A stretch of DNA of 64,000 bases, taken from assembly GCA_963804165.1 (NCBI GenBank), contig CAWDPO010000037.1, positions 87,876-151,875 on the forward strand, given 5' to 3'. Shown piece after piece: positions 8,589 through 12,065 of this stretch. Origin of the DNA: an uncultured delta proteobacterium. Its GTDB lineage: Bacteria; Desulfobacterota; Binatia; UBA9968. Every line of letters begins with the position of its first letter. Positions within the stretch are counted from its first letter, which is position 1. Below the pieces are notes generated by a model. It did not search any database, was not told where the DNA came from, and saw only the letters and a program-made list of their open reading frames with translations. Position numbers and translations under genes: made by a program.

Positions 8589-9326
8589 TTAGAGGCGTTG
8601 GAGCAACCAGTGCGGCGTGAAGCGTAAGACGTAGGCATTGAGCATGGTCATATAGTCGGAGATCAATAAAATGCCGGCAATAATCAGCAGCACGCCGCCG
8701 GCAACGTGAATCGCTTGCACGTAACGGCGCAGGCGCTGGGAGAACTGAAAAAAAGAATTGATCGCCAGCGCGCTCAAAAAAAATGGCAAGCCAAGCCCCG
8801 CTGCGTAGCTCGTCAGCAACATCGTGCCGCGGCCCACTTCCCCGGCCGTGCTGGCAAGCGCCAACGTCGCTCCCAAAATCGGACCGACGCAAGGCGTCCA
8901 AGCCACGGCAAAAGTTACCCCCACGAGTATCGAGCCGAGATAGCCCGCCGGCTTGTCCTTGAGATTAAACTGCAGGTAACGATCGAGCGCGGCGATCTTG
9001 AAAAGCCCGACGAGATAAAGTCCGACGAGGAGAATAAACGCTCCGCCGAGAATTCGGATCGTGTCTCGATAACCAAGGAAAAGCCCGCCGAGAAAGCTCG
9101 CCGACGCGCCGAGGGAGATAAAAACCAGTGAAAAGCCGACGATAAACGCCAGCGAATTCAGCACGACGCGCCAACGAACGCGGCTGCGACCCTGTTCGCT
9201 GCGCATTTCATCGAGGGAAACGCCGGAGACAAAAGAGAGGTAGGACGGAATCAGCGGCAAAACACAGGGCGACAGAAAAGAAAAAACACCGGCGGCGAAG
9301 GCGACGAAAAAATTAACGTCGGTCAT
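8589..9326 (-). CDS. ccdA: Cytochrome c biogenesis CcdA (DsbD TM domain)
   Basis: SFLSPCVLPL and WTPCVGP motifs; start MTDVNFF overlaps the upstream stop. Confidence 0.93.
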   Translation of the reverse strand: MTDVNFFVAFAAGVFSFLSPCVLPLIPSYLSFVSGVSLDEMRSEQGRSRVRWRVVLNSLAFIVGFSLVFISLGASASFLGGLFLGYRDTIRILGGAFILLVGLYLVGLFKIAALDRYLQFNLKDKPAGYLGSILVGVTFAVAWTPCVGPILGATLALASTAGEVGRGTMLLTSYAAGLGLPFFLSALAINSFFQFSQRLRRYVQAIHVAGGVLLIIAGILLISDYMTMLNAYVLRFTPHWLLQRL

Positions 9327-9886
9327 CTTTTTCCGTCGAGCAGATCTTTGACCAACTTGCGAGCACCGCTGCCATACCACTCCGCCGGCCCCCAGCCGCG
9401 CGCTAATCCTTCGCCGTTAGGTCCGATTAAATAGGTCGCCGGAAGGCCCCAGGCGCCGTAGAGGCTGCCGACCTGAGCTTCAGGATCGAGCGCGATCGGA
9501 TAACTGATTTTAAGCTCCTTGACGAAGTCGATGGCGTCTTGTTTGCGGTCTTTGACGGCAATCGCCAGCACGACGAAGTTCTTCTGTTTGTATTCCAGAT
9601 ATAACTTTTCCATCGCCGGCATCTCTTCCCGGCAAGGCACGCACCAGCTCGCCCAGAAATTCAACAGAACGATTTTGCCACGGAAATCTTTTAGAGATAT
9701 CTTCTTTCCGTCCGGGGTGCTCAAGTTGAATTCCGGTGTCGGCCCGACTTCCTTCATCGGCTGAAGGATGGGCACGACCTTGTAATCAATTTTTGACTGG
9801 CTCCAGACGGGCGAAAAACTCGACGCGGCCGAAGCTCCGAGCAGAACGATGGCAAGCAATAAATGGCGACCCCTTCGCATTCTCAT
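9323..9886 (-). CDS. TlpA/ResA-family periplasmic thiol-disulfide reductase
   Basis: LNFWASWCVPCREEMP motif, signal peptide, coupled to ccdA; start position approximate. Confidence 0.9.
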   Translation of the reverse strand: MRMRRGRHLLLAIVLLGASAASSFSPVWSQSKIDYKVVPILQPMKEVGPTPEFNLSTPDGKKISLKDFRGKIVLLNFWASWCVPCREEMPAMEKLYLEYKQKNFVVLAIAVKDRKQDAIDFVKELKISYPIALDPEAQVGSLYGAWGLPATYLIGPNGEGLARGWGPAEWYGSGARKLVKDLLDGKR

Positions 9887-10044
9887 ATCGACATTCACTG
9901 TAGCCAACAGGTCACGCGGACGCAATACTCGCCCATGGACCAACTCATGGACGAGTCGAAAAGTTCCCGAAAAAAAAGACAACCGCTTATTGGACCCGAA
10001 AGGAAGGAAAAAATTCGCGATGAACTGAAGCGCAATAAACAACT

Positions 10045-10087
10045 AAAAACACAAGGCCCTCCAAGTAGTGTACCGGAGGGCTCTGTG
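10045..10087 (-). terminator. Intrinsic terminator
   Basis: Minus strand reads CACAGAGCCCTCC-loop-GGAGGGCCTTGTG followed by TTTTT. Confidence 0.85.
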
Positions 10088-10173
10088 CATTAGGGTAACC
10101 AGAACAGTTACCTTATCGCCTGAGAGTAAGGAGGGTTTACATCACCACCACCACATCCTCAACAACTCCGCGC

Positions 10174-10224
10174 TTACTTCTTTTTCTTTTTGGCTTTCTT
10201 TTTGGCTTTTTTCTTAGCAGCCAT
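10174..10224 (-). CDS. 16-aa lysine-rich small protein MAAKKKAKKKAKKKKK
   Basis: ATG preceded by AAGGAGGT SD; clean ATG..TAA; has its own promoter and terminator; below the ORF-track size cutoff. Confidence 0.75.
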   Translation of the reverse strand: MAAKKKAKKKAKKKKK

Positions 10225-10338
10225 AAGCACCTCCTTTTAGGATTCCACGGGTGGGCTTTTTCGGTTGACGGGCGTTAAAACATGACTCAGGCAAGAGAGA
10301 CGAATATCAAAACCCTCCCATATTTTGTAGGTGATTTG

Positions 10339-10368
10339 ATTATTAAGGCACAACAAATTGTATGTCAA
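10339..10368 (-). promoter_or_regulatory. Sigma70 promoter for the sORF/RNA
   Basis: TTGACA-N18-AATAAT with an AT-rich UP-like tract upstream. Confidence 0.7.
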
Positions 10369-10721
10369 GAAAAAAATGTCATTTTACAAAATAAATTATC
10401 GATCGGAGCAAATCTTAGTGTGTTCATACCAAGCTCAATTTTGGCGATTTAGCGGCAATGAAGGTGCACCGATGAGTAGCCACAATCAGCAGAGCGTTTT
10501 ATTTCTAAACTTTCGATGAGAAGTCTCGAAATGCTGCTCCGTGGCGGAAATATTTGGCGCGGCACCTGCGGTGGTACCCACACGGGGGCGCGTGCGCCGT
10601 TGATGTCAGCTTTCCAGATTTCCGAGCGCTTGACCTGTTTTCTTTCAGAATTGACGGGGCGAACTCATTGTTCACGTTGCCGGCGCATCGGCCGCCACGG
10701 GACTCTTTCTCTCGACTTCAC

Positions 10722-12065
10722 TTAGCTAATGTCCAGTGCCTTAATGAGTTTTAACAAGTGACTGCGGTGTAGTCCGAGGGCTTTCGCCGCCGTTGCGCGA
10801 TTGCCCTGCGCGCGCGCCAGCGCGTTGACAATCAACGCGCGCCGATGACTGTTGACGGCATCATGAAACGGTTGAGTCGGCGGGGATAACTTCCCAATGC
10901 CTATCACCCGGGTCGGCAGGTGATCCACGGTGAAGCGGGGTCCGTCGCCCAGGACGACGCCGCGTTCGAGTACATTTGCCAGCTCGCGCACGTTTCCCGG
11001 CCAGGAGTAGGTAGATAACTTCTGTAAAGCGTCCTCGGTGATTTCACTAAAGGTCTTTTTCGTTTCGGATCCGAAGCGGCGCAAAAAATAGTCGGCGAGG
11101 TGAGGAATATCTTCTTGGCGGTCGCGTAACGAAGGCAGTCCAATGGCGATGACATTCAAGCGATGGTAAAGATCCTCGCGAAAAGAGCCGCGCTTGACCG
11201 TGTCTTCGAGGTCCTGATTGGTCGCTGCGATGATTTTCACGTCCACCCCGATGGGTTGTATCCCGCCGATTCGCTCGAACTCACGCTCCTGCAGGAAGCG
11301 CAGCAGCTTGGTTTGCAGCTCCGGCGAAATATCCCCGACCTCGTCGAGAAATACCGTTCCGCCGTCGGCGGCTTCCATCTTCCCCTTCTTCAATTGATGC
11401 GCCCCCGTGAAAGCGCCTTTTTCGTGTCCGAAAAGTTCGCTTTCCAGGAGTTCTTTGGAAAGCCCGGCGCAATTGATTGCGACGAACGGCCGAGCCGCCC
11501 GATCGCTCCATTCGTGAATCGAGCGCGCGAATAATTCCTTGCCCGTACCACTTTCTCCCAGCAGGAGCACAGTCGTTCTGCTGCTTGCAGCTTTCTTCGC
11601 TTCTTCGATCGCCCGCGCCATCACCGCGCTCTTTCCCACAACCAGTCGGTAGCGGCCGGCCAATTCTCGGCTAAGAAGCTCCACTTCGGATTTGAGCCGG
11701 GCTCTTTCCAAAGCTTTGCTTACGACTAAGGCCAAATGGTCCGGATCGAAGGGCTTGGTGACAAAGTCCTCCGCGCCGCTCTTGATCGCTCCAACCGCGC
11801 GCTCGATGGTCCCATAAGCTGTGATCATTATCACGGGAAGATCGGGCTGGGTTTTTTTGATTTCTTCCAGGACTTCGATGCCGTTCATTCCGGGCATCTG
11901 GTAGTCCAGCAGAACAAGGTCCACGGGAGTCGCGGCAAGCTTCTCCAGCGCAGTTCGGCCGTTCTCGGCTTTTTCAATGCCGTAGCCCAGGTCGGTCAAC
12001 TCTTGCTCCAGCAAATCGAGATTCAGTGGTTCGTCGTCGACCAGGAGGATTTTCTGTGGCATCAA
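10722..12065 (-). CDS. Sigma54-dependent response regulator (NtrC/AtoC family: REC-AAA-Fis HTH)
   Basis: [14 protein letters not shown] and WPGNVREL motifs; no adjacent kinase. Confidence 0.95.

Follow-up and report, generated by a model that had tools for sequence, protein, structure and literature searches.

A conserved, previously undescribed small gene or RNA with an oligolysine reading frame upstream of tlpA-ccdA in two Binatia families

Binatia are widespread, uncultured soil bacteria. The stretch of DNA analysed here (the window; 64,000 nucleotides (nt) of contig CAWDPO010000037.1, from an uncultured delta proteobacterium of this group) carries on its minus strand, at 10386-10045, a compact unit in which direct reading identified an UP-like A/T block, a promoter, a leader, a Shine-Dalgarno (SD) sequence, an oligolysine open reading frame (ORF), a trailer and an intrinsic terminator. 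It is a small gene or RNA, not described before, that is conserved as a single copy in two Binatia families. An earlier reading of the window, made from its letters alone (the original prediction), had placed a promoter, leader, SD, ORF, trailer and terminator here, together with blocks of complementarity between leader and trailer, and each of these was found on the minus strand where it had been placed. The same prediction held that standard annotation would miss the ORF, and rightly so: gene callers would miss this product of 12-19 amino acids (aa).

The promoter is preceded by an A/T block (10370-10386, 5' of the -35 hexamer) composed of TAAAAT (10386-10381) and a T run (10376-10370), which resembles an UP element. 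In a 27-row alignment the T run and CTTGACATAC are unchanged in all 26 rows reaching that far, and TAAAAT is also present in divergent loci. The -35 hexamer TTGACA (10368-10363), found by promoter scan, is likewise unchanged in the alignment and is followed, after an 18-nt spacer, by the -10 hexamer AATAAT (10344-10339), which is TATAAT in many relatives. With a score of 11/12 this is the sole promoter-like site in 9800-10800 (mean for shuffled sequences 0.8). Judged by spacing only, transcription would start near 10332, giving a leader of about 108 nt, a trailer of about 129 nt and an RNA of about 285-290 nt. The SD sequence AAGGAGGT (10236-10229; AAGGAGGU as RNA), of which AAGGAGG is identical in 43/43 sequences, precedes the ORF MAAKKKAKKKAKKKKK, which runs from an ATG at 10224 to a TAA stop at 10176-10174 and encodes 16 aa, 11 of them lysine. 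The unit ends in an intrinsic terminator (10087-10045) with a lower stem CACAG/UUGUG, an upper stem GCCCUCCGG/UUGGAGGGC and a U run at 10049-10045; its stem at 10081-10056 and the T run were listed by the terminator scan.

The syntenic homologues looked for upstream of tlpA-ccdA were found, with both the ORF and the paired blocks conserved. BLAST searches with the 331-nt unit gave matches in 27 of 41 related genomes (21/24 in the window's own family, f1; 5/5 in family f2; 0/11 in the sister family f3), all 69-95% identical and near-full length from promoter through terminator. A covariance model of the 3' domain was run against all 123 available genomes of the order, four of them unpublished (G005, G476, G479 and G493), and matched 80 (f1 74/89, f2 5/5, f3 0/28). 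These matches span 25 of 27 genera, with a copy number that is nearly always one; the window's own genome (7.5 Mb, 55.8% G+C, 81% complete) holds one copy. Neither BLAST nor the covariance model found the unit in f3, and none of its motifs was present upstream of ccdA in four complete genomes of that family. Across the phylum, a pattern joining the SD to M-A-x-K-K-K-A-K was found in 2/401 genomes, namely the window's own and one other f1 member, the pattern being strict enough for variants such as MAKKK to escape it. In genome G003 two copies with equal scores and the same flanking genes lie on contigs C25 and C26 (L019; also L049 and L054), and the second may be an assembly or strain duplicate and not a true second copy.

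Scanning for the motif in a single genome of each species returned 68 loci. In 42 of these an SD and an oligolysine ORF precede the motif, and one more, L085, without a called ORF, is the unit itself cut at a contig end. The remaining 25 are pattern matches without an ORF in unrelated taxa and were taken as chance; the three inspected (L045, L091 and L093) resemble ordinary coding sequence. Four loci from Rubrobacteraceae/Rubrobacter (L036, L043, L071 and L086) match the pattern with a 39-nt span and without an oligolysine ORF, and four such matches within a single family point to a conserved sequence peculiar to it, perhaps coding. By title, the ORF-bearing records belong to Candidatus Binatia, 'delta proteobacterium' or bins of that sort. 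L029 (labelled Chloroflexota) and L063 (Verrucomicrobiia) also carry the unit, with Binatia-like neighbours, and L029 is identical to the Binatia-family locus L007 over the stretch compared; these two labels probably result from mis-binning or mislabelling.

The ORF is kept at 27/27 of the relatives' loci and evolves in the manner of a coding sequence. Among 43 non-redundant sequences all 446 lysine codons end in a purine (AAG 236, AAA 210, AAC/AAT 0), while alanine codons occur with every third base (GCC 70, GCT 54, GCA 40, GCG 6). Since the purine two-fold degeneracy of lysine and the four-fold degeneracy of alanine match the genetic code, the ORF reads as coding. The spacer between AGGAGG and ATG is 5 nt in 41/43 sequences, and the stop codon is TAA in 33 and TAG in 10. 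Peptide lengths are 13, 15, 16, 17 and 19 aa in the 43 sequences and 12-19 aa in a wider set of 52 distinct sequences, every length change being in frame. Those 52 sequences hold 18 peptide variants (for example MAKKKAKKKKKR, MAKKAKKAKKKKK and MAAKKKAKAKPKKKAKKKK), the peptide being made of lysine and alanine with a charge of about +9 to +12. Its conserved property is composition and charge, as the exact sequence and the spacing of the alanines drift. On these patterns the ORF looks coding, that is, under coding-type constraint. At 10213-10179 (minus) the ORF consists of a 12-nt tandem unit, GCC AAA AAG AAA, present twice, and relatives seem to differ in length by having gained or lost AKKK-type units; runs of eight A in L005 and L039 are potential slippage sites.

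Two long-range helices link the leader to the trailer. Arm A (GGGAGGGUUU, 10319-10310) is complementary to arm A' (AAACCCUCCU, 10138-10129), and arm B (UGCCUGAG, 10293-10286; CGCCUGAG in most relatives) pairs with arm B' (CUCAGGCG, 10124-10117) through the cores GCCUGAG (10292-10286) and CUCAGGC (10124-10118); all four arms lie on the minus strand, in the order A-B-A'-B'. For the window sequence taken alone, long-range helices of at least 9 and at least 7 base pairs (bp) also arose in 51 of 1000 dinucleotide shuffles, and the fold of the whole RNA has z = -1.52 relative to shuffles. Because these single-sequence statistics are only mildly unusual, the case for the helices rests on conservation. 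Few non-coding blocks are invariant in the 52 sequences, and the arms belong to these; four of the seven such blocks make up two perfectly complementary pairs. The A:A' core GGAGGG:CCCUCC is present in 50-52 of the 52 sequences. At the flanking pair d=4 the combinations are U-A in 44, U.G in 2 (including L113) and C-G in 1 (L114), and at the outer pair d=-3 they are G.U in 39, G-C in 4, A-U in 2 and U-A in 2. All seven pairs of the B:B' core stay paired and six are unchanged in 52/52; at the seventh, d=5, A-U occurs in 50, G.U in one (L114) and G-C in one (L113, with GCCUGGG facing CCCAGGC). The adjoining pair d=-1 is C-G in 42, U-A in 3, U.G in 3 and unpaired in 4.

The count in 43 sequences gave one B:B' pair with double changes (C-G 35, U.G 3, U-A 3) and none for A:A'; as both helices are mostly invariant there, that alignment says little on either, and the further support came from anchoring the alignment on motifs and adding divergent members to reach 52. 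RNAalifold, applied to 26 sequences, picked B:B', a 3' hairpin and the terminator. For the four named helices (A:A', B:B', the 3' hairpin and the terminator), 95.2% of cells in the 43 sequences hold standard pairs, compared with 90.4% after shuffling (0/500 shuffles reach the observed value), and sliding the partner by 1-3 columns lowers the paired cells to 37-57%. Double-sided changes are more widespread in the local structures, affecting 6/8 pairs of the 3' hairpin and 10/14 of the terminator in the 43 sequences. Compensatory changes thus support each crossing helix, though in few lineages, and the two crossing helices of the original prediction were borne out as conserved pairings. A third pairing that it proposed, of CAUGUUUUAACG with UGUUGAGGAUG, fell away: both lie in variable stretches, and no helix there passed the column-pair scan.

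Several other parts of the RNA, all on the minus strand, are also conserved. Its 5' end, CUACAAAAUAU (10330-10320), is predicted to be single-stranded; columns 6-16 of alignment A2 are invariant or nearly so there, and the column-pair scan found no conserved pairing partner for it. Between arm B and the SD lies a pyrimidine block, GCCCACCC (10256-10249; CCCRCC), with C80, C81 and C84 invariant or nearly so in A2. RNAalifold pairs this block with GGAGGU, without any double change, and in 30/43 single-sequence folds the partner of the SD is a local upstream stretch, no single partner being fixed. Downstream of the ORF a G/U-rich tract, GGAUGUGGUGGUGGUGA (10157-10141), keeps its GUGGUGGUG-like composition in every A2 row, its indels having lengths not divisible by three. 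A plus-strand ORF of 49 aa (10068-10217) was dismissed because it includes this tract with its non-triplet indels. The 3' hairpin (10112-10094) has a conserved 5-nt loop, GUUCU (10105-10101), on a covarying stem; alignment A3 shows no variation at G37, T38 and T41 of the loop or at G42 and G43, with which the 3' arm begins, and the closing pair C-G is A-U in L116. Arm A' could alternatively form 7 bp with the SD, a pairing considered as a switch and dropped because equilibrium folds give it a mean probability of 0.01.

Sequence data labelled as RNA bear on expression. Part of the locus is contained in 12 RNA-labelled runs, which were picked because they contain the sequence (run shares under 0.2 were not used). 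Contigs from four of these runs (three studies; soil and rhizosphere) were placed on 9850-10550, and none extends outside 10083-10317, a segment of the predicted transcript. Among them are a 226-nt piece (10083-10312) and pieces of 129 nt and 84 nt, each of the latter with 0 differences; two of the four libraries are small, at about 17 million letters each. There is no contig cover at 9850-10082 or 10318-10550, which alone proves nothing. Taken together, the contigs hint that the unit is an abundant discrete RNA.

The unit was compared with known RNA families and small proteins. The Rfam 15 search that had been proposed found no family that explains the pairing: there was no match at gathering level in the whole 64-kb window, and permissive filters over 9900-10800 returned four chance-level matches (E 2.9-8.9; 14-21 bits against gathering thresholds of 40-100). 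At the level of listings and abstracts, the literature yielded no account of the element, of an oligolysine small ORF or of a comparable lysine leader peptide, and neither a search with a 12-residue peptide fragment nor one pairing Binatia with small RNA gave a match. Dual-function RNAs with products of 15-29 aa are known (e.g. PMC8916003, PMC8672173), and RNAs of this kind that encode very small proteins include Spot 42/SpfP (15 aa), AzuCR/AzuC (28 aa), VcdRP/VcdP (29 aa) and SR1/SR1P. The unit is like them in being a short stand-alone transcript with its own promoter, an intrinsic terminator, conserved RNA structure and a tiny ORF of similar length. It differs from them in that its product is a low-complexity oligolysine and not a folded or amphipathic peptide, and two crossing long-range helices enclose the loop that holds its ORF; neither by sequence nor through Rfam was a relationship to these RNAs found.

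In composition the peptide recalls the tiny basic ribosomal proteins. Among them, bS22 is described as about 30 aa long with 61% K/R, unannotated and with an abundant transcript, and bL37 and the eukaryotic eL41 (a 24-aa helix) as further tiny, basic and often unannotated ribosomal proteins (PMC10618245). With 11 lysines in 16 residues the window's peptide falls within the bS22/eL41-type description of a very short protein with at least about 60% K/R. It also resembles these proteins in being missed by annotation, in its apparently abundant transcript and in its restriction to a lineage. Unlike bS22 and eL41 it is shorter (12-19 aa), consists of lysine and alanine with almost no arginine, and drifts in sequence, and the comparison with them is by composition only. 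A crude scan of the window's own genome for a bS22-like gene gave 14 candidates; four have at least 20 aa and none of these matches NCBIfam. On present evidence the unit would work most like a dual-function RNA or a structured small-protein mRNA, with a product of the composition of tiny basic ribosomal proteins, a likeness that stops short of family membership.

The reading that we prefer, with the chances for and against it about even, is that the unit makes a stable mini-mRNA, held in a clamp and possibly dual-function, that encodes a polycationic peptide. Its promoter, very strong and of the sigma-70 type, would produce an RNA of about 285 nt ending at an efficient intrinsic terminator. 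Helix A:A' (about 10 bp) would cross B:B' (about 8 bp) and link the RNA's 5' and 3' parts, so that the resulting loop of about 160 nt would hold the optimal SD and the ORF of 12-19 codons. Because the ORF starts about 60 nt past arm B and stops about 35 nt short of A', ribosomes could translate it repeatedly while the clamp stays closed. Together with the 3' hairpin and the terminator, the clamp would protect the RNA and so make it a long-lived mini-mRNA of high output. The lysine/alanine peptide (+9 to +12) would act by its charge, as a cytoplasmic polycation binding RNA, ribosomes or DNA, and feedback on translation from the clamp or from a pyrimidine block occluding the SD would be possible. 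With non-coding blocks this invariant, a second role at the RNA level is a serious possibility. We are considerably more hesitant about an extended form of this model, which we regard as unlikely, in which the gene-encoded oligolysine serves as a lineage-specific polycation for the ribosome or cellular RNA (an analogue of eL41/bS22 or of polyamines) and its own mRNA is the sensor, the polycation stabilising the pseudoknot clamp and thereby shutting down or re-routing translation of the looped-out ORF.

Several observations weigh against the clamped mini-mRNA. The +1 frame is also open in 42/43 sequences, which makes the openness of the ORF weak evidence; translation into the putative peptide is deduced from the codon patterns. 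Covariation in the long-range helices comes from few sequences (L113 and L114, which are of one genus, L003, L009 and L041), and several of their flanking cells are unpaired. In nested folding A:A' and B:B' are mutually exclusive, with mean probabilities of 0.29 and 0.41, and the two could therefore be alternatives instead of a simultaneous pseudoknot, although the linkers, of 4 nt from A' to B' and about 16-21 nt from A to B, make their simultaneous formation sterically plausible. The SD is predicted to be mostly paired (mean unpaired 0.26), which fits badly with constitutive high output. The non-coding blocks are more invariant than mRNA stability alone would demand, which hints at another partner for the RNA. 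Lastly, the RNA contigs give no transcript ends, strand or level, and RNA libraries can hold DNA; for the high expression originally proposed, contigs confined to the predicted transcript are a hint in favour, and the level itself is something that contigs cannot show.

Near-universal in two Binatia families and encoded by a single copy, this apparently abundant transcript is invisible to standard annotation. If translated, its product of 12-19 lysine and alanine residues would be among the shortest conserved bacterial proteins, and a rare case in which selection keeps charge and composition and not sequence. The RNA itself would provide a small, naturally occurring case of an ORF translated within a loop that two crossing helices close, a design relevant to mRNA stability and translational control. 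If the oligolysine-sensor model were true, the unit would be an autoregulated 'polycation gene', a kind of gene with no earlier description.

In one rival account the unit is mainly a trans-acting regulatory or protein-binding RNA, a dual-function small RNA (sRNA) in which CCCUCC, the loop GUUCU and the 5' CUACAAAAUAU are seeds or binding sites and the ORF is secondary or couples RNA activity to translation. We consider this possible but on balance rather improbable. Seven non-coding blocks are invariant over about 26 genera, beyond the needs of pairing or mRNA stability; the size, strong promoter, terminator and apparent abundance are typical of housekeeping sRNAs; the peptide keeps its composition and not its exact sequence (18 variants); and dual-function RNAs with products of 15-29 aa have precedents (PMC8916003, PMC8672173). 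However, no target or partner can be named and the C-rich block itself pairs with arm A, while the perfect SD, the fixed 5-nt spacing and the purine third base in 446 lysine codons show selection on the translation of lysine codons. The same codons bear on a further account, which we hold to be very doubtful, in which the RNA is non-coding: its A-rich tract would be a platform to which proteins bind, such as (ARN)n triplets recognised by the Hfq distal face, and its SD-like sequence a structural or binding element. All lysine codons are indeed A-R-N triplets, the open +1 frame agrees with this account, and a U-tailed terminator suits Hfq-type sRNAs. An (ARN)n tract is nevertheless disfavoured, because its third base should be free and yet is A or G in 446/446 lysine codons, whereas the third base of GCN uses all four letters; the AUG, the 5-nt spacing (41/43) and the in-frame stop are moreover kept, and all length changes are multiples of three.

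The two remaining alternatives invoke known systems with a short ORF in a structured RNA, namely the leader-peptide attenuators (of the his, trp, thr and leu type, and the leader-derived rnTrpL/peTrpL) and tmRNA (SsrA). In the former, translation of the ORF, through the supply of Lys-tRNA or the availability of ribosomes, would choose between terminator and antiterminator and so set read-through into the downstream operon. In all loci inspected the unit is on the same strand as, and upstream of, tlpA-ccdA-folE, heading a (hydrolase)-tlpA-ccdA-folE array; codons of one amino acid (11 Lys) dominate the short ORF ahead of a terminator, as in classical leader peptides; arm A (GGGAGGG) has a possible second partner in the terminator's 5' half (GCCCUCC); and three GGAGG-like and three CCUCC-like elements could exchange partners. 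Against this, the next gene downstream is not constant, being tlpA in the window's own genus, a hydrolase-like ORF of about 275 aa in 8/11 other loci inspected (two of them of f2) and a 566-aa ORF in L076, and the downstream genes have no link to lysine. An alignment of the terminator-tlpA spacer from 19 loci shows a conserved block, GTATTGCGTC, then about 17 nt, then GTTAGAGT/TACAGT, which in the window corresponds to a promoter-like -35 TTGCGT (9925-9920), 17 nt and a -10 TACAGT (9902-9897) before the tlpA ATG at 9886 (minus). This block looks like the operon's own promoter, although the consensus promoter scan did not list the site; as its -10-like TACAGT ends about 10 nt before the ATG, the tlpA-ccdA-folE mRNA may be nearly leaderless. 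Because the next gene varies and the operon has this conserved promoter-like block, the unit, with its own strong promoter and terminator, is a stand-alone gene and not a leader, in agreement with the original prediction; by the same evidence its suggestion of Lys-tRNA sensing, if read as a control of tlpA-ccdA, is not supported. About 85 nt separate the stop codon from the terminator, the SD:A' pairing has a probability of only 0.01, and no RNA contig spans the terminator, itself a weak point. A classical attenuator is unlikely because the terminator is strong and the column-pair scan gave no conserved helix over the ORF, and we regard attenuation as quite improbable overall. The tmRNA-like alternative, in which the RNA would sequester or rescue ribosomes, shares with tmRNA a short ORF looped out between pseudoknot-forming helices. 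This part of the original prediction is disfavoured by ARAGORN, which found no tRNA or tmRNA gene in 9000-11500, by the lack of a match to an Rfam tmRNA family and of a tRNA-like end, and by the ORF's own canonical SD and AUG, features that tmRNA lacks; it seems extremely improbable.

The ORF of about 275 aa that lies between the unit and tlpA/ccdA in L047, L057, L058, L075, L095, L069, L042 and L070 resembles an alpha/beta-hydrolase (...PLILVHGLW..W.W..HF.NLGW.C...). It does not occur at this place in the window's genus, and in f3 (L102) it lies directly before ccdA without the unit. Farther upstream of the tlpA promoter-like block a GGAACTTTT motif is also conserved in many relatives. The type of promoter found in the unit, a T run followed by CTTGACA, has three occurrences in the window's own genome. 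One drives a cspA-like cold-shock gene (MASGKVKWFN...; L106:8300-8701, contig C42, minus), which has a 5' untranslated region of about 170 nt behind this promoter, and sharing its promoter type fits the unit's assignment to a strong promoter class. The third occurrence, at C42:82756, lies about 50 nt before an ORF of 251 aa.

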